The notes: generated by a model not told the origin, from the letters alone. A stretch of 12,961 bases of DNA from a virus (IMGVR_UViG_2778261527_000007), one strand, 5' to 3'; positions 93 to 12,078 are shown, counted from the first letter of the stretch. Made by a program: numbers and translations.

Positions 93-1112
93 TTACTTCA
101 GCTTGACGTTCAGCGTGTAGTTCGGGCGCAGGTTCAGAGGGATGAAGCTCGCCTCCTGGTGAATGGTCACCATGCCGTAACGGTCAGTCATTACTTTCTG
201 GTAGAACGGGCTGATCTCGCCTTTCGCGGCGATGTCCTGATTACGGGAAGCCGGGCCGTGTACCAGTTTGAACGGGTTACGGTCAGCGCCGTTAAACTTA
301 GGAACGAACAGGCCGGAACCTTCTTCGCTTTCGTAGCGGTCATCGTCCGCCAGAATGAAAGTAATGTTGCCAATGCTGAAGGAGTCATAACCCGCAGTGT
401 TAACCGGGATCAGAGCGCCTTTTGCAGCTTCCGCCACTTTGTTGGTAATAAGGCTGGTTACTTCCGGGTGGCTCGCCAGTACGTCATACAGATCCGGGGA
501 GCAGAAGCAGAAGAAGCGGTCCAGATAGGAGCGGCTCGCGCCGTACTCTTTAACCAACATGCGGCGAATCTTCGCAAGCTGTGCATACACGTTAGCGCCT
601 GCTGAACCGTCCAGGTTGAAACTCAGCGGATCGGCACCCATCGCCGCGCGAAAGTCGATATCACCGTCGTCAGTCTTAGCCGCTTTCGCTTCCTGTTTGA
701 ACAGGGCGCGGGCCAGCGTACTTTCAACCGTTTCCAGGTGATGGTTACGCATACGGATAGCTTTAGACGCGATCACTTCAGAAATAGCCGCAACCTGATC
801 CGGGTTAGCCGGGCTGATCAGACCTTGCCAATCAGCGGTTTTTACGTCCGCTTCGGTGGCGTAGTGTGGGAGCTCCTGGTCACGCAACAGAGGCTTATCC
901 ATTTTGATGGAGTTAACTTCGGTGCCGTAGCGGGCTACCTGTTCCAGTTCAGAGACTTGAGTCTCTACGATGTCCAGAACTTGAGCGTTTGGAGTGGTGG
1001 AGTTAACACCGGAGAAGATACCCAGATCAGAGATCAGGTAATTACCCGCTGGCACTTGTTTAAGTGCCGCTACGGTGTCCAGCTTTTCAAACTGTTTAAA
1101 ATCAATAGCCAT
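93..1112 (-). CDS. Phage major capsid protein (339 aa; lambda gpE-type family suggested)
   Basis: 339-aa ORF with RBS AAGGAAAT just upstream of the ATG at 1112-1110. It lies 13 nt downstream of a ~120-aa head gene, the classic decoration-then-major-capsid arrangement; size and composition fit gpE-type capsid proteins. Family assignment is by recognition, not search. Confidence 0.7.
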   Translation of the reverse strand: MAIDFKQFEKLDTVAALKQVPAGNYLISDLGIFSGVNSTTPNAQVLDIVETQVSELEQVARYGTEVNSIKMDKPLLRDQELPHYATEADVKTADWQGLISPANPDQVAAISEVIASKAIRMRNHHLETVESTLARALFKQEAKAAKTDDGDIDFRAAMGADPLSFNLDGSAGANVYAQLAKIRRMLVKEYGASRSYLDRFFCFCSPDLYDVLASHPEVTSLITNKVAEAAKGALIPVNTAGYDSFSIGNITFILADDDRYESEEGSGLFVPKFNGADRNPFKLVHGPASRNQDIAAKGEISPFYQKVMTDRYGMVTIHQEASFIPLNLRPNYTLNVKLK

Positions 1113-1496: not shown

Positions 1497-1689
1497 AAAG
1501 GTTTTCCTTATGGAGGGTTTTAGACGTGGAGAGAGTCCACAGGGTGATCCGGTGCAACGCCGGATATAAGGACCGCCACAGAGGACAATCCGAATTGTTG
1601 GAAGATGGGAGGCCGTGGGGTGAATAGAAGAGGGCGGCATCCGCGCCGCCCTTTCTAATCTGGCTCTCTCTCACCCTCTAGGGTGGGGG

Positions 1690-1709
1690 GAGGTGTAAAC
1701 CTCTTTTTT
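1690..1709 (+). terminator. Possible intrinsic terminator hairpin (GAGGU-GUAA-ACCUC followed by UUUUUU)
   Basis: 5-bp stem with GNRA-type tetraloop followed by six T. Nothing obviously coding upstream on +, so the role is unclear. Confidence 0.3.
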
Positions 1710-1767
1710 GTGGTCACTCACCCGCCAGCGTCACGGGAGCAACCGCCAGCCGATGGGTAAATAACCA

Positions 1768-1796
1768 CAAAAAAGAACCCGGTAGGAGAGACCGGG
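1768..1796 (-). terminator. Intrinsic terminator upstream of the head gene pair
   Basis: On the - strand: CCCGGU-CUCUCCU-ACCGGG perfect 6-bp GC-rich stem followed by UUCUUUUUUG. Sits ~270 bp upstream of the decoration-like gene start. Confidence 0.45.
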
Positions 1797-2697
1797 AGAA
1801 GACAATGTAACTTACTGTCTGATCACTTGTTTTCCTGTGTAGCCTCAGAGCCTTACATGATTTGCTTTCATGGTTCAGCAAAGAAGCCACAGAGGAAAAC
1901 GGGACGCAACCAACGCCCCGGAAACCATCGACACAAATCAACAGTTTATCGTTGAGACCAGGTAACCAGCCCGGCCCAACTGTGGACCCCTAAAGGGTCA
2001 ATACAATCGAAGGAGATTCCGCTTGTATTCTGAAGAGCCGCAGTTAGCGACGCTTTAAAATAGGGCCTGTGCCGCAAGCCCTATGATTAGAGGCATTTTG
2101 AATCGTAGGAATGTCATCAACTGGCGGAACTTGAGGAGAGGACCGCACACAAAGCATTCTGGCAAGTGGAGTTGAAAGAACGCTTTGGGTGAGGGCCGGG
2201 GACTTGCTGAAGGTTCCCGGCTCTCTTACAGACCCTGACAGGTTGGCTAAAACCCATGTTTCTGTACAGGTGTGAGGCGGCAAGCTGCAAAACGGCGATT
2301 TCGACATACTCACCATATCCCACACCATGTATATTAGTTTAACACGAATGATTATCATTTGCAATAAAAATTAATTGCATTGTGTTGTTTGATATGATAT
2401 GTGAGATTGAGGGCAGATCTGGCGGCAGGTACAGAGGAGCCACACAGAAGAGGGGCGGGAGCATCCCACAGGGGCCACAGGAAAGCCTCCACGGGGTTTT
2501 AATGGGGTAAGATGATAAATGACCTTGTCACAGTGGCGGACGCGCTGGAGAGCTTTACAGGAGGTTGTAGAGGGTGGAGGGATTATTGATTGATAATTGA
2601 ACAGGTGAGAGTGTAATTAATTTTTATTGACAGTCTATAAAGATCATGTTATTTGCGTGTGCATACGCACTCACGCCCGCGCCTCCGCGAACACATC

Positions 2698-2802
2698 TTT
2701 TAAATAAAAGATTTTTATTATAATCGTTCAATCGGACTTTGACAAGTCCTCTTTCACTCTTAAATAAAAGATCTTTTATATAATATCTATCGTTCAATAA
2801 TT
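2698..2802. repeat. AT-rich imperfect direct repeat (two ~40-bp copies, ~60 bp apart)
   Basis: TTAAATAAAAGAT(C)TTTTAT..TAAT..CGTTCAAT occurs at 2698-2735 and 2758-2802. A TTGACA hexamer lies between the copies (2739-2744). Confidence 0.5.
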
Positions 2803-2948
2803 AATCGCTTAGGCTCTTAATTATTTCACTCATATATTATTACCATTAAAACCTTCTCGGCCTGATCGGCCTTACCAGGTTTTAGGCCGTAGGCCTGTTC
2901 CCACAATGTGGAGTCTCGCCTGTGTGGCTCACTCCAGACAGGGACCCC

Positions 2949-3006
2949 GGAAATATTTTCCGGGCAGGGTGGAAGATTTTTCCGGCCTGTTAGGAAATAT
3001 TTTCCG
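2949..3006. repeat. Three phased 14-bp repeats GGAA(A/G)AT(A/T)TTTTCCG at 22-bp spacing
   Basis: Copies at 2949-2962, 2971-2984 and 2993-3006, each a near-palindrome (GGAAA..TTTCC). The 22-bp phasing equals two helical turns, typical of protein-binding arrays (operator, iteron or packaging-site type). Confidence 0.6.
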
Positions 3007-3414
3007 ACAATAAGACTATATATAAAACTACCCATAAGACTAACACCCAGGGGCCAGGTCAAGATCTTTAAGGGAGTGTTGGGGAAATCGTAGATTGATT
3101 GGTAAGAGACTGATCTCTGTTAAGCGTCTTACAGACGCGCCTCTTTGGCAGCGCTCGTACCAGCGAGCAAGACCCCTTTGGAACACCGCACGATGTAAGG
3201 TGACCTCTGGGCGGCGGGGTGGGGTCCCCGGCCCGGCATAACGTACAGAACCACAACCCACAGGAACCCACCTAAACGCGCCGCTGTGGCGCTCTCTCCT
3301 ACGTAGACAAGGAAACACCTTATAAACGCCCTCCGGCGCTCTGAGAGCCTTACAGGGGCTTTCTGTGCCTATAGCACAATAAACAAATGATCGCAAGATA
3401 AATCAATAAAGTTA

Positions 3415-3443
3415 TTGCGAATCATTGTCAAATAGTGTAAAAT
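3415..3443 (+). promoter_or_regulatory. Candidate sigma70 promoter for the + strand operon
   Basis: TTGCGA (3415-3420), 17-bp spacer, TAAAAT (3438-3443), ~75 bp upstream of the first ORF. A second candidate is TTGTGA (3449-3454) / TATATA (3472-3477). Confidence 0.3.
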
Positions 3444-3517
3444 AGATATTGTGACGGGGTAGTTAATCAGGTATATAAATCCCCATCATACTATAACCAA
3501 CCCAGCAGGAGAATGCA

Positions 3518-3943
3518 ATGAGTATTTACCTTGATGTTGAAAAAATGGTTGAACGTGTCGATCAGCGTGATCTGACCCGTAAGACCCTGACAGAAACCCG
3601 CAGCCGGATGAAAGCCGCCGGACGTATGAGAGAAGTAGAAGCGATTACGCAGGCCCTTGAATTGACCAAATCCAGTGCCTCCGGCGTTATGCGCCAGTCT
3701 CAGCGCCTCACAGGTAAAATTACAGAGATGGACGCAGAGAAGGCATTAGAGCTTAAAGCAACCGTTGCGCTGTTCGCTTCCAAGTCTACGGATCTGCAAG
3801 CCTCCATTGTGCTGGCGTTCCAATCCCTCTTTGAGGCTAAAGGCGTGCCGATGGAATATGACGAAGTGATGGCCTACATCATGTTGAATGCGGCGGATCA
3901 GTTTGAGCGTATCACCGGAGAGCTACCCGTAATCGTACATTAA
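3518..3943 (+). CDS. Hypothetical protein (141 aa)
   Basis: First gene of the operon; ATG preceded by AGGAG with a 6-nt spacer. No family recognised. Confidence 0.65.
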   Translation: MSIYLDVEKMVERVDQRDLTRKTLTETRSRMKAAGRMREVEAITQALELTKSSASGVMRQSQRLTGKITEMDAEKALELKATVALFASKSTDLQASIVLAFQSLFEAKGVPMEYDEVMAYIMLNAADQFERITGELPVIVH

Positions 3944-3972
3944 TTTTTAACTTACTTTTTGGAGAGGAAACA

Positions 3973-4158
3973 ATGAGCAAATATCAGCCTTATGTTGATT
4001 TGAGTGATTCCCCTGTGTTGTCAGCGTATGCACAGCAGACGATCAACCAGTTAGACCCCATCCTGTATAGCGACATTTACGAAATGTTGACGCAGGTTAG
4101 CCCCTCCCAAATGGTGACGATTGGCAACCCGGCTATTACCGCCCCGGCGTCATGGTGA
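3973..4158 (+). CDS. Hypothetical small protein (61 aa)
   Basis: ATG preceded by GGAGAGGA; tightly packed after the previous gene. Confidence 0.45.
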   Translation: MSKYQPYVDLSDSPVLSAYAQQTINQLDPILYSDIYEMLTQVSPSQMVTIGNPAITAPASW

Positions 4159-4220
4159 GGTGATTGGTTCGGCCTCAACCTCACCGCTGAAGACATCGCA
4201 GAATTAAAGGAGATTAGCCT

Positions 4221-4409
4221 GTGAGTAAAAATAAAGAGTTGGGGATCAGCTTCGATCCCTATGTGATGGAGCAGCTTTTCGCGTTGGCCTCCACCCGTGA
4301 ACATGGCAGCGTTCACACCATTGTTAAGAAAGCCGTTAGCCAGTACCTGAAAACCGTTAATTCCATCTCTGTTAAGGATTCCCAAAATGACAGCAGCCGC
4401 AGTAAGTAA
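4221..4409 (+). CDS. Ribbon-helix-helix (CopG/Arc-like) DNA-binding protein (62 aa, GTG start)
   Basis: GTG start preceded by AAGGAG. N-terminal pattern ISFDPYVMEQLFALASTREHGSVHTIVKKAVSQYLK fits the beta-strand/helix/loop/helix layout of RHH regulators. Confidence 0.5.
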   Translation: MSKNKELGISFDPYVMEQLFALASTREHGSVHTIVKKAVSQYLKTVNSISVKDSQNDSSRSK

Positions 4410-5049
4410 GCCATTTACCGCAATCCCGCATGACCTTGCGGACATTGAGCTGATCGGAGGCAAGGCGTTTACCATGAACATGGTTTACACCTACAGCCTG
4501 ATCAAAGGTTACCAGGACAATGGGCAAACGGCCTATTTCTCACAAGATCTTTTAGCCCGTCGCCTGGGGGCCACAGATCGAACCGTCCGCAACCTGTTGC
4601 GCGATATGTTGGAGATGGGTCTGATTAACAAGACCGGGCAGATCGGCGGCAAGACCTGCCATTACACAGTTAACCCGATCACCCCGGAAATGGTGGGAAC
4701 CCCTGAAGCCGCCAAACCTGAAGTAACCAAACCAACCGCAGCACCCCAACCGAAGGAGACCGTAGAGAATGCAGGAAGTAACCAGCCTGGAATTGTTAAG
4801 TGTGGATCTGAAAGTGTACATAGAAGCCGCCCGGCGTCGCCTGGAGCTTCTCCTGTGGACCACAGCGGGGGCGCTATTCGTCCCGCTCCTGTCCCTGTGC
4901 CAGTAGAGCAGGGGGCCGCAAACGATGATTTACGCAACCCTGTTATTAATTTTGTGGCTGGCTCTAATGTGATGATGGTCAACGGCTTGCCTGTTGAATA
5001 TCTGGAGCCAGAAGAAAGCGCCGTTGATCAGTTTGGTGATGCTTTCTAA
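4387..5049 (+). CDS. Winged-HTH (HTH_36-like) DNA-binding protein, possible replication initiator or organiser (220 aa)
   Basis: ATG preceded by AAGGA; overlaps the RHH gene by 23 nt. Motif AYFSQDLLARRLGATDRTVRNLLRDMLEMGLI resembles the HTH of phage/plasmid replication proteins, followed by a Pro/Ala-rich linker and an acidic C-terminal domain. Alternative start at ATG 4474. Confidence 0.6.
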   Translation: MTAAAVSKPFTAIPHDLADIELIGGKAFTMNMVYTYSLIKGYQDNGQTAYFSQDLLARRLGATDRTVRNLLRDMLEMGLINKTGQIGGKTCHYTVNPITPEMVGTPEAAKPEVTKPTAAPQPKETVENAGSNQPGIVKCGSESVHRSRPASPGASPVDHSGGAIRPAPVPVPVEQGAANDDLRNPVINFVAGSNVMMVNGLPVEYLEPEESAVDQFGDAF

Positions 5050-5125
5050 AAATCTGCAATTGATTTCCCAATAATAACACTATACACCAAACCCCCGCGC
5101 TTTACAACCCTCTGGAGACTCTCGC

Positions 5126-5692
5126 ATGAATGAATTTATTACAACCAAATTCAAAGCCTTATCCTCTGAGGAAGAGGCCGCAGTTAACGCACTGGCTGAG
5201 AAATTGGCAGCAAACAAGCCCCGCCGGATTATGGATGAGAGCCACTTAACCCCGGATCAAATCCTGAAGATCAAGCGGGCCTGTATTCAGGGCCACAGCG
5301 CTAAAGCCATCCAAGCGGCGTTTAATGTGTCGCTGGCTTACGTCCTGAAAGTAAAGCGCAGCCACAACCCCCAGAAGTACCAAAAGACCCCGCTAACTTT
5401 GGCTGAAAAAGGCGTTATGGCTAAACAGATGGAAGCCGACGGCCTGAGCCTCTCCAAAATGGCGGAACTCCTGGGGATTAACAGTAAGATGGTCTCCCTA
5501 CTTCTTACCCAACCTTCACCCCGTTACCTGGTGGAGCAAATGCTCCCGTATGACCAAGTTTTGCAGAATCTACGCAGCGCCCGCTATGTAGAAAACCCTG
5601 TATACAAAGAGGGGACGAATAAGCGCCGTGTGCGTCTAATCGTTTCTGAAGCACGTCAGCAGACCCGCCAGGCAATCATTAAATCCCGGTAA
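5126..5692 (+). CDS. DNA-binding protein with two predicted HTH motifs (188 aa)
   Basis: ATG preceded by GGAGA. Two HTH-like segments (..GHSAKAIQAAFNVSLAYVLKVKR.. and ..GLSLSKMAELLGINSKMVSLLL..) and a basic C-terminus. Confidence 0.6.
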   Translation: MNEFITTKFKALSSEEEAAVNALAEKLAANKPRRIMDESHLTPDQILKIKRACIQGHSAKAIQAAFNVSLAYVLKVKRSHNPQKYQKTPLTLAEKGVMAKQMEADGLSLSKMAELLGINSKMVSLLLTQPSPRYLVEQMLPYDQVLQNLRSARYVENPVYKEGTNKRRVRLIVSEARQQTRQAIIKSR

Positions 5693-5863
5693 CTATGCCC
5701 AACCCAACGGAATGGGGTCTAAAGGATTATTTAGGCTCCAAACTGGTTAAGCGTCAGACAAGACTCTCTAACTTTCTCGCCTCACTCCTCTACATCCCCT
5801 TTAAACCCGCCTCCCTCTTCCTGTGGGGTGTGGTAATCACTTTACTTATAAGGACCCTCTCAC

Positions 5864-6238
5864 ATGGAAGCATTTAAGAACCTCCTCAATCAGTTGGAAA
5901 TTCAGAAGGCAGAACAGCGCCAGCGGGAAGCCGAAGAGGCAACCAAACAGAACGAACTCCGCAAGGCACAGGCCGATCTGTCACTGGATGAGGCTATCGC
6001 TCTGTACGCCACACAGTTGGAAGCCTCCGCCAATGCCGCAGACAGCGCCCAGAAGGGCCGCGCCATTAAGAGCCGGGGAATTGCTCTGTGTCACAAGGAT
6101 CAGGGATTCAGCGCCAACGGTCGCCCGGTCTCTCTCCTGACCAAATCCGCAGACCTGCCAGCAGGTCACCGCCGGGTAATCATTAACAAGGCAGCAGGGC
6201 GCACCCTGAAGGCTATCAAACTGGAAGGGGATGAATAA
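5864..6238 (+). CDS. Hypothetical protein (124 aa), translationally coupled to the tape-measure-domain gene
   Basis: ATG preceded by AAGGA. Its stop TAA (6236-6238) overlaps the next ATG (6238-6240) as TAATG. N-terminus is coiled-coil-like. Confidence 0.6.
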   Translation: MEAFKNLLNQLEIQKAEQRQREAEEATKQNELRKAQADLSLDEAIALYATQLEASANAADSAQKGRAIKSRGIALCHKDQGFSANGRPVSLLTKSADLPAGHRRVIINKAAGRTLKAIKLEGDE

Positions 6239-8373
6239 TGAGCGGTAACGTGATCATTACCAAAACGATTAACCGGACCATGTTCACCACGGACGGGGCC
6301 AGCTATAAAAAGACAGTTGACCGTATCAAACAGGTAGGGAAAGAGTGGGACAAAGTAGCGTCCAAGATGAAACCGCTACGCCTCAAGTTTGAGGAAAACG
6401 CCTACACCAAGATCCGCCGGAAACAGCAGGACGCCGCCGCAAAAGCAGCACTGGCAGAAGCCAAAGCCAAAGCGGCAGCAGACGCCAAAGCAGCCAAAGC
6501 ACAGATCGCAGCGGAGCGTAAGATCCAGACAATCCGCGCTAAAGCTATCCGCTTCAGCACTTCAGCGGCTAACGCCAACGTGACCCCGGCCCAACGTGCT
6601 GGACACCTCCAGGAGTTTGGACAGCTTACGCGCCAGTATCACGCCGGGTCTATGGCATTGCAGGAATATAACGCCCGTGTGTCAAAACTTCAGCAAACCA
6701 TGCGCCAACAAGGCCGGGTAGGCATGAGGGGAGCCACAATTCCAGTAACCGCCAAAGTTAACAAACTGGACACCTCCATGATCGAGGGTGCAGGGGGGGC
6801 GATCACCATTGCCGCAACTGTGGCGCTGAGCGGCAAGATCATGACCACCGGGCAGGATTTTGAATCCGCGCTTTCTGGTCTGACAGCGATCACCGGTTCC
6901 ACAGATAAGGCCGCTAAAGAGTTTGATTATCTCCGTGATCAATCCAACCGTTTGGGGCTGGACCTCCTGAAGACTTCAAAGGATTACACTCAATTTGCCG
7001 CCGCTGTTGGTGACAAACTCCCTAAAGACCAGATGAGATCCATCTTTGAGGGTGCCAGTGAATGGGGCCTTGTTACTGGTGCAGACGCCGACGCACAAAG
7101 CCGCGCTTTGAAAGCACTTAACCAAATGATGAGTAAGGGAACGGTGATGAGTGAAGAACTCAAAGGCCAGCTTTCCGAAGCTCTCCCGGGCGCTGTGGGT
7201 CTGTTCGTTAAGGCTCTCAACCAGATGAAAGGGACAACCAACCTTACAGAAAAGGATCTGTTTGACCTGATGCAACAAGGGAAGCTGTTCTCTAAGGACA
7301 TCCTCCCGGAAGTGGCGAAACAGATGAAAGCCGCAGCTCGTAACGGCGGCGCTCTGGATAAGGCTATGAAGTCCAACCGGGCAAGTTGGCAGCGCCTGCA
7401 AACCAGTATGCAGAACGCTATGAATATCTTCTTTACTTCTGGCTTTGGTAACTCACTAACCAGCGCTTTCGACGCTATCAGCGCCGCTGTTAACGGCTCT
7501 GGTGGGGCCTTTGAGATGTTCGGGCATATCGCCGGGAAAATCGTTGAGGGTGCCACAGATGCGTTTACAGAGTTGCACGACACTGTGATCCTGACCTTCC
7601 GCATTATTGAGTATTACGCCGCTAAGATGGGGATCACTGGTGAGCAGCTTAAATCCTGGGGAGAAATGGCAGCATACGCCGCCGGGGTGGCTCTGTTCGC
7701 TGGCTCTATCTGGAAGTTGGGCGGGGCCTTTAAATGGTTGTTGACCATGCTCAACCCGCTAACCAAATTGCTGGGGGTCATGAAAGGGATCGCCGCTATT
7801 GGTGGCATTGAATCCGCTACAACTGGCGGATCTGGTGGGGAAGGTAAAGACAAGCCAAACAAACCGGGCCGGGGTCCGAAAGTTGGCAAGGTAGGCGGCG
7901 CGGCGGCTCTCTCTGGCGGTCCTGTTGGCTGGGGCATTGCGATCGGTTCGGTAGGTGGGGATTATGCCTGGGATAAAGTCATGGACGCTAACGACGCCAT
8001 GTATGGACAGGACACCACCGCCGGAGGCAATCTGAAGAAAGATAGCCCGCTGGGTAAACTGTGGGATTTCATCCACAGCCCAGACCTTCCGACTAATCCA
8101 GACTTTGCCAAACCAACAGATAAAACAGGGTGGGTAAGCTCTTACTCCAATCCGGGTTATGTTCCTCCTGCGCCGACGATTACAGCGCCACAGCTTAAAG
8201 TTGATATGGCAGGTAATCCACTGATGACGCCGCCAGCGTGGCTAAACCAGCCGCTTAACGTGAACGTCAATGTGAAAGTGCAGGATGGGCAGGTTAGGGA
8301 TCTGGTCCGCTCTGAAGTTGAGACCAACAACCAGCAGGCTTTCAACATGCTGATGCAGGGCGGGCCGAACTAA
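6238..8373 (+). CDS. Phage tail tape-measure-domain protein (711 aa)
   Basis: N-terminal Ala/Lys-rich coiled coil, then a region (..ADAQSRALKALNQMMSKGTVMSEELKGQLSEALPGAVGLFVKALNQM..) matching the conserved tape-measure domain as I recall it. C-terminal half has hydrophobic Gly-rich segments (..VGGAAALSGGPVGWGIAIGSVGG..) typical of tape-measure proteins. RBS AGGGGA. Confidence 0.75.
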   Translation: MSGNVIITKTINRTMFTTDGASYKKTVDRIKQVGKEWDKVASKMKPLRLKFEENAYTKIRRKQQDAAAKAALAEAKAKAAADAKAAKAQIAAERKIQTIRAKAIRFSTSAANANVTPAQRAGHLQEFGQLTRQYHAGSMALQEYNARVSKLQQTMRQQGRVGMRGATIPVTAKVNKLDTSMIEGAGGAITIAATVALSGKIMTTGQDFESALSGLTAITGSTDKAAKEFDYLRDQSNRLGLDLLKTSKDYTQFAAAVGDKLPKDQMRSIFEGASEWGLVTGADADAQSRALKALNQMMSKGTVMSEELKGQLSEALPGAVGLFVKALNQMKGTTNLTEKDLFDLMQQGKLFSKDILPEVAKQMKAAARNGGALDKAMKSNRASWQRLQTSMQNAMNIFFTSGFGNSLTSAFDAISAAVNGSGGAFEMFGHIAGKIVEGATDAFTELHDTVILTFRIIEYYAAKMGITGEQLKSWGEMAAYAAGVALFAGSIWKLGGAFKWLLTMLNPLTKLLGVMKGIAAIGGIESATTGGSGGEGKDKPNKPGRGPKVGKVGGAAALSGGPVGWGIAIGSVGGDYAWDKVMDANDAMYGQDTTAGGNLKKDSPLGKLWDFIHSPDLPTNPDFAKPTDKTGWVSSYSNPGYVPPAPTITAPQLKVDMAGNPLMTPPAWLNQPLNVNVNVKVQDGQVRDLVRSEVETNNQQAFNMLMQGGPN

Positions 8374-8389
8374 CCGCCCATACAAAAAA

Positions 8390-8419
8390 GGCTCCCCTAG
8401 TGGGAGCCTTTTCTCTTTT
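8390..8419. terminator. Bidirectional intrinsic terminator between the convergent tape-measure and recombinase genes
   Basis: GGCTCCC-CTAGT-GGGAGCC perfect 7-bp stem, flanked by an A-run (8384-8389) and a T-rich tail (8409-8419). Confidence 0.6.
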
Positions 8420-8442: not shown

Positions 8443-9009
8443 TCATAACAGATCTTCTATTGAATATTTATTACTGAAATCATCTACTTTGCGTTGTGTG
8501 GCCCCAATGTAATGGAGCGTACTGGATAACGATTTGTGCCCCAATGCCTTACTGATTACGGCTATATCCTCCCCATTGTCATAACCAATCGTTGGTTTAC
8601 TCTTCCTCATGCTGTGGGTCGAAAGATTCAGCCCCAGCTTTTCCCCGGCGTAGCTAATTTCCTCATGCAATTTGGAGCGGCTCACAGGTTTTCCCTTGCT
8701 CCTGTGGCTGTCCAACTGTAAGAGGTATACATGATCAGGGTTCGCCTCTCTCCGGGCCGCTATGATGCGTTTAGCGGTATCGGTGAGCCTCACCCGGACA
8801 GATTCACCCGTTTTCTGTTGGGACAGGACAAGGTGATCGCCTTTGATGTCGTCATAACGGATAGAGCGCAGATCCGACACCCTCAGCATTAATTCATAAC
8901 CCAGCAACCAGGCGTCACGGTACAGCGTCAGCCCCTTGCCCTGTTTGAGTAGCTCAACCGCTACCGCTTTCACTTCCTGAACTGATTTACAGCCCTCTAC
9001 GAAATTCAT
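8443..9009 (-). CDS. Tyrosine recombinase, integrase catalytic domain only (188 aa; FimB/FimE-sized)
   Basis: Strong RBS GGAGGG 5 nt before the ATG. All catalytic signature residues of lambda-Int-type recombinases are present in order: R (LRVSDL), K (QQKTG), H-x-x-R (HSMRKS), H and Y (LGHKSLSSTLHY). There is no room for N-terminal arm- or core-binding domains. Confidence 0.75.
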   Translation of the reverse strand: MNFVEGCKSVQEVKAVAVELLKQGKGLTLYRDAWLLGYELMLRVSDLRSIRYDDIKGDHLVLSQQKTGESVRVRLTDTAKRIIAARREANPDHVYLLQLDSHRSKGKPVSRSKLHEEISYAGEKLGLNLSTHSMRKSKPTIGYDNGEDIAVISKALGHKSLSSTLHYIGATQRKVDDFSNKYSIEDLL

Positions 9010-9033
9010 TCTGTACCCTCCAGATCCTAACTG

Positions 9034-9050
9034 TGATCAATTCTTGATCA
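9034..9050. promoter_or_regulatory. 17-bp palindrome TGATCAA-TTC-TTGATCA with two GATC sites, in the recombinase promoter region
   Basis: Perfect 7-bp inverted arms with a 3-bp spacer, 25-41 bp upstream of the recombinase start codon. Confidence 0.35.
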
Positions 9051-9403
9051 AAAACATGCACTTGTAAACGACAAAAATGATTAATTTTATGATGTGTCTT
9101 TTTAGTGAATTAAATCGGGTTTAATCGCGTTTAATGGTAAAGTAATGACCCGGCAGGGGAGGTAATGACCTGTTTAAGTGGGTAAAAGATGGTTACTTAA
9201 TGTACTATCACCACAAGGCGGGTAAGGTGATTTGACTCCCCCAGCGCCTTAAAGTTACTGTATTTGTGGGCAATTAATTATTGTTTCGTTATGGTGTTGC
9301 CTGGCAAATTTTCAATTTACCCTCAAGAAAAAATCCCCAGCTTTTTTATCCTTATATGAGAATCAATATCATTTGTAAACGATAGTCGTTCTCGTTACCA
9401 ATC

Positions 9404-9582
9404 GGGGCGAAAGCCTTCGCCCCTCAAAGGGCCTCTGTAGGCCCGCTCTCTGTATGCGCCTGTGGCGCTACCACTCTTAACCCTGTGGGTTTGTATTACT
9501 TGTCACAAGATAATGCGCCACAGGCGCACAGGGGAGGCGTCCGCCTCCAGGGTGGCCCGGCTGGGCCACTGGTCCACAGGGT
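9404..9582. repeat. Cluster of GC-rich hairpins and nested inverted repeats
   Basis: Successive perfect stems: GGGGCGAA/TTCGCCCC (9404-9423), GGGCCT/AGGCCC (9429-9444), GCGCC-TGT-GGCGC (9456-9468) and its reverse complement GCGCC-ACA-GGCGC (9515-9527), GGAGGC/GCCTCC (9533-9548), GTGGCCC/GGGCCAC (9552-9569). A 9-bp inverted pair ACCCTGTGG (9480-9488) / CCACAGGGT (9574-9582) encloses part of it. Does not match the REP consensus I remember. Confidence 0.5.
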
Positions 9583-9972
9583 AAAACAACAGAATGGTAT
9601 TGTGTTGTTATTAAGTAATTGAGAATAAAGGGATATCTGAGTGAGCGCACTGTAAGAGCGGAAGGTTGGACAATGTTTGACCAGAATGCAGGCCATCCGG
9701 TAGGGAGCGCCCCCAGATATTTGGCGAAAATACTCTCATCACCCGGGGCCTCAGATCGAGGGGCCTAGCAACAATATCCAAACTCCCGGATATTTTCCCA
9801 CCCAACTGGAAGGAATCCGCCCCTATTTTCTGTTCGTGTATAGGTTAGGCTGAGGGAGGCTTGCCAATGTACACCCCCTGGATTTGGTGATCTGTTAAGT
9901 TATTGATTTTGATCGATTTTAGATCAATCATCCGTTGCCGGGATTACCCCCCACCCAGACGGATGGCACACA

Positions 9973-10155
9973 ATGAATAACGATAAAGCAAACCACCCTA
10001 AACACTTCCAATACTTGGGCCGCATGGTCACTGTTTACCCTACATACATCATTATTGACGGTATCAAGATCAGCCGTGCCCGTCTTTCCTTTGCATTCCA
10101 ATTGGAATTGGCAAAAGCACTTCGACTGCATGAAGAAAGCGTATGCAGAAAATAA
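9973..10155 (+). CDS. Hypothetical small protein (60 aa), uncertain
   Basis: ORF followed 37 nt later by a strong intrinsic terminator; RBS is weak (GGATGG). Confidence 0.3.
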   Translation: MNNDKANHPKHFQYLGRMVTVYPTYIIIDGIKISRARLSFAFQLELAKALRLHEESVCRK

Positions 10156-10191
10156 ATTTCATTTAAATCTTCACGACTGAATAATTTACTT

Positions 10192-10217
10192 AAGCCGCCT
10201 TATGGGCGGTTTTTTTT
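10192..10217 (+). terminator. Intrinsic terminator
   Basis: GC-rich stem (GCCGCC / GGCGG) with 5-nt loop, followed by eight T (10210-10217). Confidence 0.6.
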
Positions 10218-10366
10218 GTGCCTGCCATTTATCTGTGGGTCACAACGTGAGACACAAACTGGGACACAGAGGATTTTTTAGGGTTGAGTCTTTGGCTTCC
10301 CGCTGGCATGATCCAGAACAGGGATTAACGGGACGTTAATCGCAAGCTTTTGATTTTGTTTTATTT

Positions 10367-10492
10367 GACTCGGGGTGCCCTTCTTAAATGAAGGCTGAGA
10401 AATACCCGTATTACCTGATCTGGATAATGCCAGCGTAGGGAAGTCACGGACCACCAGGTCATTGCTTCTTCACGTTATGGCAGGAGCAAACT
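10367..10492 (+). promoter_or_regulatory. TPP (THI-box) riboswitch in the thiM leader
   Basis: Aptamer (about 10367-10445) GACUCGGGGUGCCCUUC..GGCUGAGAAAUACCCGUAUUACCUGAUCUGGAUAAUGCCAGCGUAGGGAAGUC is near-identical to the E. coli thiM TPP aptamer as recalled, including the CUGAGA and ACCUGAUCUGGAUAAUGCCAGCGUAGGGAA elements. Expression platform runs to the thiM SD and ATG. Confidence 0.9.
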
Positions 10493-11281
10493 ATGCAAGT
10501 CGACCTGCTGAGTTCAGCGCAATCTGCGCACGCGTTACACCTTTTTCACCAACATTCCCCTCTTGTGCACTGCATGACCAACGATGTGGTGCAAACCTTT
10601 ACTGCCAATACCTTGCTGGCGCTCGGTGCATCGCCAGCGATGGTTATCGAAACCGAAGAGGCCAGTCAGTTTGCGGCTATCGCCAGTGCCTTGTTGATTA
10701 ACGTTGGCACACTGACGCAGCCACGCGCTCAGGCGATGCGTGCTGCCGTTGAGCAAGCAAAAAGCTCTCAAACACCCTGGACGCTTGATCCAGTAGCGGT
10801 TGGTGCGCTCGATTATCGCCGCCATTTTTGTCATGAACTTTTATCTTTTAAACCGGCAGCGATACGTGGTAATGCTTCGGAAATCATGGCATTAGCTGGC
10901 ATTGCTAATGGTGGACGGGGAGTGGATACCACTGACGCCGCAGCTAACGCGATACCCGCTGCACAAACACTGGCACGGGAAACTGGCGCAATCGTCGTGG
11001 TCACTGGCGAGGTGGATTATGTTACCGATGGCCATCGCGCCGTTGGCATTCACGGTGGCGATCCGTTAATGACCAAAGTGGTAGGAACTGGCTGTGCATT
11101 ATCGGCGGTTGTCGCTGCCTGCTGTGCGTTACCAGGCGATACGCTGGAAAATGTCGCATCTGCCTGTCACTGGATGAAACAAGCCGGAGAGCGCGCAGTC
11201 GCCAGAAGCGAGGGGCCAGGCAGTTTTGTTCCACATTTCCTTGATGCGCTCTGGCAATTGACGCAGGAGGTGCAGGCATGA
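10493..11281 (+). CDS. thiM: Hydroxyethylthiazole kinase
   Basis: 262-aa product essentially matching E. coli ThiM as recalled ([31 protein letters not shown]..). RBS AGGAG; preceded by the TPP riboswitch. Confidence 0.95.
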
Positions 11282-12078
11282 AACGAATTAACGCTCTGAC
11301 GATTGCCGGTACTGATCCCAGTGGTGGTGCGGGGATTCAGGCCGATCTTAAAACCTTCTCGGCACTTGGCGCTTATGGTTGCTCAGTTATTACTGCACTG
11401 GTGGCGCAAAATACCCGTGGCGTACAGTCGGTGTATCGCATTGAGCCTGATTTTGTCGCCGCCCAGCTCGATTCGGTGTTCAGCGATGTGCGAATCGACA
11501 CCACTAAAATCGGTATGTTGGCGGAAACCGATATTGTTGAAGCGGTGGCAGAACGGTTGCAACGTTATCAGATCCAAAACGTGGTACTCGACACCGTTAT
11601 GCTGGCAAAAAGCGGCGACCCGCTGCTTTCACCTTCGGCGGTTGCTACACTGCGCAGTCGATTATTGCCACAGGTTTCATTAATAACGCCAAACTTGCCC
11701 GAAGCTGCCGCCTTGCTCGACGCGCCACACGCGCGCACCGAACAGGAAATGCTGGAACAAGGGCGATCGCTGTTGGCGATGGGCTGTGGCGCAGTGCTAA
11801 TGAAAGGTGGTCATCTGGATGATGAGCAAAGCCCGGACTGGCTGTTTACCCGCGAGGGTGAACAACGGTTTACCGCACCGCGCATTATGACCAAAAACAC
11901 CCACGGCACTGGTTGTACGCTCTCTGCGGCGTTGGCTGCACTACGCCCGCGCCATACAAACTGGGCTGACACCGTACAGGAGGCAAAAAGCTGGCTTTCA
12001 TCAGCATTAGCCCAGGCCGACACGCTGGAAGTTGGTCACGGTATTGGTCCGGTTCACCACTTCCACGCCTGGTGGTGA
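11278..12078 (+). CDS. thiD: Hydroxymethylpyrimidine / phosphomethylpyrimidine kinase
   Basis: 266-aa product matching E. coli ThiD as recalled ([27 protein letters not shown]..). ATGA start/stop overlap with thiM. Confidence 0.95.

Follow-up and report, generated by a model that had tools for sequence, protein, structure and literature searches.

A tape-measure protein gene in a 13.5-kb island of Escherichia coli, a probable satellite of virulent Vequintavirinae phages

Manipulation of tail assembly by a phage satellite has been demonstrated in one family only, the PLE of Vibrio cholerae. All PLE satellites encode their own tape-measure protein (TMP). That of PLE11 has 582 amino acids (aa), 95 aa fewer than the 677 aa of the virulent helper ICP1; it is selectively incorporated, giving tails of 94.5 nm against 105.9 nm, and is required for ~99.9% of transduction (Nature 2026, PMC12987554, Seed laboratory). 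Putative tmp genes were also remarked in PLE-like elements and in some cf-PICIs, without study (PMC12987554), and the mycobacterial EPIP satellites carry both a major capsid protein (MCP) and a TMP (preprint PMC12822802). Here we analyze IMGVR_UViG_2778261527_000007, a stretch of 12,961 nucleotides catalogued as viral and called the window below. The window is E. coli chromosome, with thiM (10493-11281), thiD and yegX at its right end, and it carries a tmp gene for a protein of 711 aa. This gene belongs to an island of ~13.5 kb between two 71-bp direct repeats, which are essentially the thiM thiamine pyrophosphate (TPP) aptamer. We propose that tmp is a working structural gene of an integrated phage satellite, and that the satellite exploits virulent Vequintavirinae of the Certrevirus type, such as phiTE and CR3; we put the probability of this reading at roughly 60%.

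Judged by its sequence, the 711-aa protein is a true, full-length TMP, since its alignment with the TMP of phiTE runs from end to end and its termini are the best conserved parts. The tape-measure hallmarks that had been noticed from the sequence alone are borne out by profile searches, which gave strong matches to PF20155 TMP_3 in Pfam (8.5e-25; 88 bits, with the cutoff at 41), to TIGR02675 in NCBIfam (2e-9, 37.6 bits against 21.35) and to phrog_5255, 'tail length tape measure protein', in PHROGs (1.1e-110). The phiTE TMP chain from the Protein Data Bank (PDB), 9cuy_W, matches at 3.7e-84 from residue 2 to the last residue, and the pairwise comparison with phiTE_228 (811 aa) gives homology over the full length (E 3e-81, 32% identity). 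The N-terminal 45 aa are 53% identical to phiTE and the C-terminal 51 aa 43%, against 24-40% elsewhere. The motifs SGNVxxTxTxNR...QVGKEW (N-terminal) and ...FNMLxQGGPN (C-terminal) are common to the two proteins, which both end in QGGPN. When the C-terminal 72 aa were compared with 50,697 phage records, all 25 matches were to Certrevirus. The TMPs of Certrevirus (phiTE, CR3 and others) have 807-812 aa and are 32-39% identical to the island protein, which is ~100 aa shorter and lacks roughly the phiTE residues 47-61, 97-187 and 212-234, in the N-terminal helical region. This length is kept within 703-718 aa in 120 cluster representatives, and the ratio of nonsynonymous to synonymous substitution rates (dN/dS) is 0.13-0.32.

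The surroundings of the gene are unusual. By sequence the protein belongs to the phrog_5255/PF20155 family, and it shares the TMP_3 core with the Certrevirus TMP (phiTE_228, 9cuy_W). The tail operon of tube, chaperone, TMP and hub genes is not found around it: the Certrevirus gene lies between chaperone and hub genes, whereas the island gene lies in an operon of regulatory and replication functions. As the sequence-only reading had stated, there is no tail module nearby; no match to tube, sheath, chaperone, baseplate or fibre families was obtained for any open reading frame (ORF) of the window, of the intact island or of 10 related islands. Its view of tmp as an orphan does not hold, because the same element encodes an MCP and a putative decoration protein, both within the window, which it had not linked to the gene.

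Only four virion-related genes are present in the island, for the coat, the putative decoration protein, a 124-aa protein with a scaffold motif, and the TMP. All four fall in families that phiTE also uses (phrog_29, phrog_2680, phrog_2970 and phrog_5255), the decoration gene by way of a sister-island homolog at 2e-4. The MCP matches Phage_cap_E in Pfam (4.4e-14) and phrog_29 (1.6e-14), as the phiTE MCP does; it is 19% identical to phiTE_213 over the full length (pairwise E 5e-5) and evolves with a dN/dS of 0.11-0.24. For the decoration gene, the mechanically called ORF extends to 1640, and the annotation and all homologs take the 123-aa start. The predicted protein matches the Pfam family HDPD (lambda gpD) at E 0.0016, below the cutoff, with a dN/dS of 0.06-0.26. 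The homolog in the sister island L006, which supplies the 2e-4 match, reaches phrog_2680 as 'head decoration', the family of the phiTE decoration protein.

The third link to phiTE is in the 124-aa protein, whose stop codon overlaps the tmp start as TAATG, in line with the translational coupling noted earlier. The head module of phiTE reads portal, phiTE_210, phiTE_211 (369 aa, in the scaffold/protease position), decoration protein and MCP. Over its residues 63-95, the 124-aa protein is 79% identical to phiTE_211 (residues 7-39), and the remainder of the two proteins is unrelated. The 33-residue motif is matched by 226 phage records, mostly Vequintavirinae, and the precomputed Pfam family of the 124-aa protein, PF26210 Phage_phiTE_211, is named after the phiTE protein. 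We also considered the 124-aa protein as a tail chaperone or as a homolog of phiTE_227, the product of the gene upstream of the phiTE TMP gene. Both were rejected, as there is no similarity and phiTE_227 is a homing endonuclease. In phage phiTE (L010, 11042-11992), this homing-endonuclease-like gene, whose product has a CapR homology domain, is the immediate upstream neighbour of the TMP gene and overlaps it, and is not a chaperone; a selfish nuclease thus sits at the TMP gene boundary in phiTE.

Taken together, the island brings a shortened tail ruler and genes for a capsid shell of its own, and seems made to borrow the rest of the virion from a large virulent phage. We propose the following course of events. 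Upon infection by the helper, a small shell fit for ~13.5 kb would be assembled from the coat and decoration proteins of the island. The phage-derived motif of the 124-aa protein would tie this shell to the head-assembly machinery of the helper, which would supply portal, protease and terminase. At the same time, the island TMP, with its helper-type N- and C-termini, would replace the helper TMP as the helper baseplate, tube and sheath assemble, so that chimeric tails ~15 nm (~100 residues) shorter would result and the helper would lose baseplates to the satellite. According to the phiTE cryo-EM report (PMC11972413), the TMP C-terminal fragment lies deep in the baseplate hub, touching three PA and two hub subunits, and the N-terminal region forms a six-helix bundle near the connector. 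Because the island protein has kept a helper-type C-terminal fragment, hub-buried in phiTE, together with the N-terminus, it may take the place of the helper TMP; the short chimeric tails are proposed by analogy with the PLE satellites.

The island is not peculiar to the window. Comparison with K-12, where the rcnR-thiM site is empty, and with an intact copy in E. coli SCU-316 gave its boundaries. The left part holds an integrase gene (452 aa), cargo, the leftward MCP and decoration genes and a non-coding region of ~1.9 kb; the right part holds a rightward operon of eight ORFs that ends in the 124-aa gene and tmp, then a small recombinase gene and attR. TMPs 74-97% identical occur in Klebsiella aerogenes, Enterobacter, Citrobacter, Cronobacter, Kluyvera, Pectobacterium, Pantoea, Kosakonia and Yokenella; the same core gene set is found in at least 10 genera of Enterobacterales, with like synteny at every locus examined, a Pectobacterium island (L008) included. 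The islands use four integration sites and either a tyrosine integrase, of which there are three kinds, or a large serine recombinase. Islands in E. coli and in public Logan/JGI assemblies (L002-L004) occupy thiM with the 452-aa tyrosine integrase, those in Pantoea and Citrobacter (L012, L014) yciO/rluB with one of 503-556 aa, an E. coli sister lineage (L005, L006) tRNA-Gly with one of ~399 aa, and L021 (GenBank assembly GCA_015947645.1) holE with the large serine recombinase. All core genes are under purifying selection by dN/dS. The hosts of Certrevirus (Pectobacterium, Cronobacter, Enterobacter, Pantoea and K. aerogenes) coincide with the main host genera of the island.

More distant relatives show how far the association reaches. 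In the sister lineage L005/L006, a ~700-aa protein keeps only the N-terminal ~100 and the C-terminal ~70 TMP residues. The TMP of L021 is 44% identical, with decoration and coat genes directly downstream, and that of L022 is 46% identical, in the order 124-aa gene, TMP, 113-aa gene and MCP. All TMP relatives of at least 44% identity that were looked up lie in islands without tail genes. A complete tail operon in related genomes would have pointed to deletion or misassembly in the window; no close relative is so placed, whereas the 35% identical TMP of L023 lies in an ordinary tail operon (sheath, tube, chaperone, TMP, Dit-like protein, hub and sheath initiator).

How does the island compare with the described satellites? 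Like phage satellites in general, it is a small integrated element with att sites and an integrase (452 aa in SCU-316), and without portal, terminase, tail or lysis genes. It resembles the PLEs as a small integrated island, in its apparent dependence on a large virulent myophage whose head is of the T=13 type, in the absence of tube, sheath and fibre genes, in its defence cargo, and in a TMP of its own that is ~95-100 aa shorter than that of the helper and 20-40% identical to it, if the helper is correctly assigned here. It differs in four respects. First, PLEs have no coat gene and remodel the ICP1 coat through TcaP, whereas this island encodes a Phage_cap_E coat. Second, PLEs encode a tail chaperone and some a baseplate hub, neither of which was found in the island by Pfam, PHROGs and NCBIfam. 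Third, the island has a putative decoration gene and the scaffold-motif protein. Fourth, islands of the window's type use tyrosine integrases and live in Enterobacterales; the PLE is compared here by its description, and the island by its genes alone.

The cf-PICIs are likewise integrated satellites with their own capsid and no tail genes, in need of helper tails. Unlike the island, they carry portal, protease, connectors, TerS (sometimes TerL), alpA and pri-rep, none of which was detected in the island ORFs by the same three databases. P4-like satellites are set apart by their psu, sid, delta and alpha-primase families, which remained unmatched in the island. The EPIP satellites of Mycolicibacterium come close in size (~11-13 kb) and in having MCP and TMP without tube or fibre genes, and EPIP particles have an altered tail length (PMC12822802). 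By their description, EPIPs differ in their serine integrase, in genes for TerS, adaptor, stopper and scaffold, in a siphovirus prophage as helper and in their actinobacterial host. EPIP tails are longer and vary in length, whereas those predicted for the island are shorter. On gene content, the island does not show the defining features of the PLE, cf-PICI or P4-like classes and would be described as a TMP-bearing phage satellite, one of the alternatives named in the sequence-only reading and the one that the evidence favors.

Searches of the literature brought up no account of this island family, and a survey of E. cloacae based on SatelliteFinder reported classical satellite families only. 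Satellite finders built on the four classical families appear to miss this element. A nucleotide match to deposited phages or plasmids was not found either.

Several observations weigh against the satellite interpretation. No helper phage, excision, replication or particle was seen, and no circular or free form was detected in public contigs; those of 13-14 kb can be traced to breaks of the assembly at the att repeats, without a circular one among them. Packaging is unexplained, since searches of Pfam, PHROGs and NCBIfam and a fold search gave no terminase (small subunit included), portal, tail chaperone or recognizable pac/cos site. The assignment of the decoration protein is weak, its AF2 (AlphaFold 2) model having a predicted local distance difference test (pLDDT) score of 37 and hhalign against the phiTE decoration protein being not significant. 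Identity to Certrevirus proteins is low (TMP 32-38%, MCP 19%), and for this reason the true helper may be an unsampled relative of the known phages. In addition, the island occurs in only 30 of 5,426 complete E. coli genomes, in two of them near-intact and in the others cut by IS4, and the window's own copy is probably stranded, its integrase being broken.

Among the alternatives, the one that survives best is that the TMP serves chiefly for interference or defence, as a dominant-negative decoy that fills the baseplate hubs of incoming phages and blocks tail assembly, and is not used for particles of the island itself. The conserved hub-binding C-terminus, the shortened protein and the other defence cargo of the island would all suit such a decoy, and interference with tail assembly is known as a defence from the Tai systems (PMC11364771) and from Rta in PLE11. 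However, tmp always accompanies the coat and decoration genes in the conserved core and is never in the variable cargo slot, and a decoy would need neither a fixed length nor a full TMP_3 core. In PLE, interference and use in the satellite's own tails coexist, so that the decoy is partly compatible with a working structural gene. As the main role of the protein we consider it unlikely.

The TMP-like protein might also have been repurposed, for instance as an ejection (pilot) or internal protein that enters the island capsid by way of its coupled partner with the scaffold motif. The protein to which it is coupled indeed has a head-assembly motif and is no tail chaperone, a chaperone gene is lacking, and in L021 and L022 the TMP gene is directly upstream of decoration and coat genes. 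Against this stands the colinearity over the full length with a structurally defined tail TMP, the hub-buried C-terminus included, and no precedent was found; we regard repurposing as quite improbable. Least convincing of all is a decaying remnant of a once-complete prophage, with a leftover TMP that has no current role (the heavily reduced prophage of the sequence-only reading): most E. coli copies are fragments disrupted by insertion sequences, the integrase in the window's copy is broken, and portal, terminase and lysis genes are missing, but the same ~13.5-kb gene set without tail pseudogenes recurs in many genera (at least 10) at four att sites with four kinds of integrase or recombinase, every core gene is under purifying selection, the TMP length is fixed, and the closest phage relatives are virulent phages of 142-155 kb that do not form prophages.

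The satellite interpretation can be taken a step further, tentatively and at less than even odds. The islands would then constitute an undescribed Enterobacterales satellite family living on virulent Vequintavirinae with a four-gene kit: a coat and a decoration protein of its own, a mini-adaptor mimicking the N-terminal peptide of phiTE_211 that captures the helper head machinery, and a short ruler that docks in the hub. The ~0.9-kb leader with several terminators would be a possible helper-sensing antitermination switch. If the satellite interpretation is true, the principle known from PLE extends to the Enterobacterales, that is, to Enterobacter, Cronobacter, Klebsiella aerogenes, Pectobacterium and E. 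coli. The predicted helpers belong to a group of phages studied with a view to therapy and biocontrol, and carriage of the island could alter their efficacy. A complete cryo-EM atlas exists for phiTE, one likely helper type, thus the predicted contacts of the TMP with the hub and of the motif with the head are directly testable; the small gene kit offers a tractable system for satellite redirection of capsid size and tail length. Induction by mitomycin C, which had been suggested earlier, is unlikely to be informative, because the predicted helpers are virulent.

Table 1. Features of the island within the window (positions counted from the first nucleotide of the window; a full stop marks a feature without strand).
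Feature	Position	Strand	Remarks
Major capsid protein (MCP), 339 aa, lambda gpE-like, HK97 fold family	93-1112	-	Phage_cap_E, phrog_29
Putative head decoration protein, 123 aa	1125-1496	-	Directly upstream of MCP, the position of the decoration gene in lambda and phiTE
Structured non-coding leader upstream of the decoration-capsid operon	1497-2400	-	Terminator-like hairpins 1920-1900, 1796-1778, 1652-1631
Divergent control region	2401-3517	.	Palindromes, and promoter-like sites 3415-3452 for the rightward operon; predicted function
141-aa protein, first gene of the rightward operon	3518-3943	+	Present in all islands examined; dN/dS 0.12-0.27
61-aa ORF	3973-4158	+	Truncated copy of an 83-86-aa gene of other islands
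62-aa small protein, probably a ribbon-helix-helix regulator	4221-4409	+	Gene at the same position in a sister island is so annotated
220-aa HTH_36 protein, candidate replication initiator	4387-5049	+	Pfam HTH_36 1.4e-5
188-aa DNA-binding protein, several helix-turn-helix units	5126-5692	+	Weak HTH_23 and Cbp1-like matches
60-aa ORF, unannotated, hydrophobic C-terminal half	5695-5877	+	Between the 188-aa and 124-aa genes
124-aa protein	5864-6238	+	N-terminal helical region, then 33-residue phiTE_211-like motif
TMP	6238-8373	+	711 aa; Pfam, NCBIfam, PHROG and PDB matches
Intrinsic terminator hairpin, 11-bp stem	8386-8412	+	Common to tmp and the convergent recombinase gene
188-aa tyrosine recombinase, catalytic domain only	8443-9009	-	Pfam Phage_integrase 3.2e-17
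Right arm of the island	9010-10366	.	60-aa ORF 9973-10155; terminator 10192-10212; inverted aptamer copy 10301-10327
attR, 71-bp direct repeat that takes in most of the thiM TPP aptamer	10367-10437	+	Right boundary of the island

The remaining features of the window are listed in Table 1. The TPP riboswitch at 10361-10458 is the only Rfam match in the window, and in L002 the two 71-bp att repeats lie at 11698-11768 and 25268-25338. Insertion of the island separates thiMD from the native promoter and leaves the promoter and one aptamer copy before the integrase gene. Beside attR there is a 27-nt inverted copy (10301-10327) of the aptamer 3' half (10409-10435), complementary at 23 of the 27 positions and identical in three islands. 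Many contigs of 13-14 kb carry this TMP and were also considered as a free episome or a packaged genome; this was rejected, as they stop within or continue across the att repeat or the neighbouring thiM and show no terminal overlap.

The cargo in the window's lineage is an OLD-like nuclease (PADLOC Old, 1.3e-45). The capsid gene is separated from the integrase or att site by a variable slot (L001 13604-17773, L003 1529-3373, L005 12176-13619, L006 8692-10247). This slot contains an OLD-like ATPase-nuclease gene in islands of the window's lineage and genes for unrelated hypothetical proteins in others, and behaves like a hotspot for defence genes or cargo. In the genome of the window, which is 99.9% identical to strain 90-1, the integrase gene is interrupted by IS911 just outside the window. 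This, together with the truncation of the 61-aa ORF, suggests that the window's copy is starting to decay.

In the rightward operon, tmp is the last gene, as described earlier; the count of seven genes becomes eight with the overlooked 60-aa ORF. The frame of this ORF is intact in L002, L004, L008 and, with a diverged sequence, L012, and the ORF is absent in L003. The description of the other genes as small regulator- or replication-like DNA-binding proteins does not hold for all of them, since the 124-aa partner of the TMP has a head-assembly motif. The 220-aa protein has weak PHROG matches to replication-initiation (O-like) families, from 6e-6 to 1e-3. The model of the 188-aa helix-turn-helix (HTH) protein from AF2 is all-helical (pLDDT 77); its dN/dS is ~0.12, and its gene is missing from L014. 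A role of this protein as small terminase was considered and rejected, since no PDB fold match to the model reaches E 0.001. The 141-aa protein has no family match in Pfam, PHROGs or NCBIfam and no PDB match, and the 62-aa protein has no match in Pfam or PHROGs. Sequence searches of the PDB with the 141-, 188-, 220- and 124-aa proteins and with phiTE_211 gave nothing.

The leader of the decoration-capsid operon, ~0.9 kb long, is better conserved than the coat gene, even in comparison with sister islands whose MCP is 43% identical. In the RNAalifold consensus of nine islands, the minus strand reaches -102.4 kcal/mol against -61.7 for the plus strand, with compensatory changes in 30 of its 117 pairs. 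The leader may be an antitermination-controlled RNA, or a source of small RNAs. The U-tracts of its terminator-like hairpins can pair with downstream A-rich segments. In the ~1.9-kb gap, searches for known RNA families (Rfam) and tRNAs found none, and in its right half (2779-3517) the consensus energies are small and favor neither strand. The palindrome GGAAATATTTTCCG occurs there in two exact copies, at 2949-2962 and 2993-3006, 44 bp apart, and is also present in L003 and L006; the copies look like operator sites.

Downstream of tmp, the terminator, a strong one, and the convergent recombinase gene are in place as the sequence-only reading had them. The 188-aa recombinase hardly varies among islands that are mosaic in other respects: it is 98-99% identical, with a dN/dS of 0.03-0.06, where other genes differ by 5-40%. 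Its further matches, to Xer recombinases and FimB/E-type invertases, are below threshold. It has no N-terminal DNA-binding domain and co-occurs with the separate large integrase; in its size and weak family matches, it resembles invertases of the FimB/FimE type or resolvases of the Xer type.

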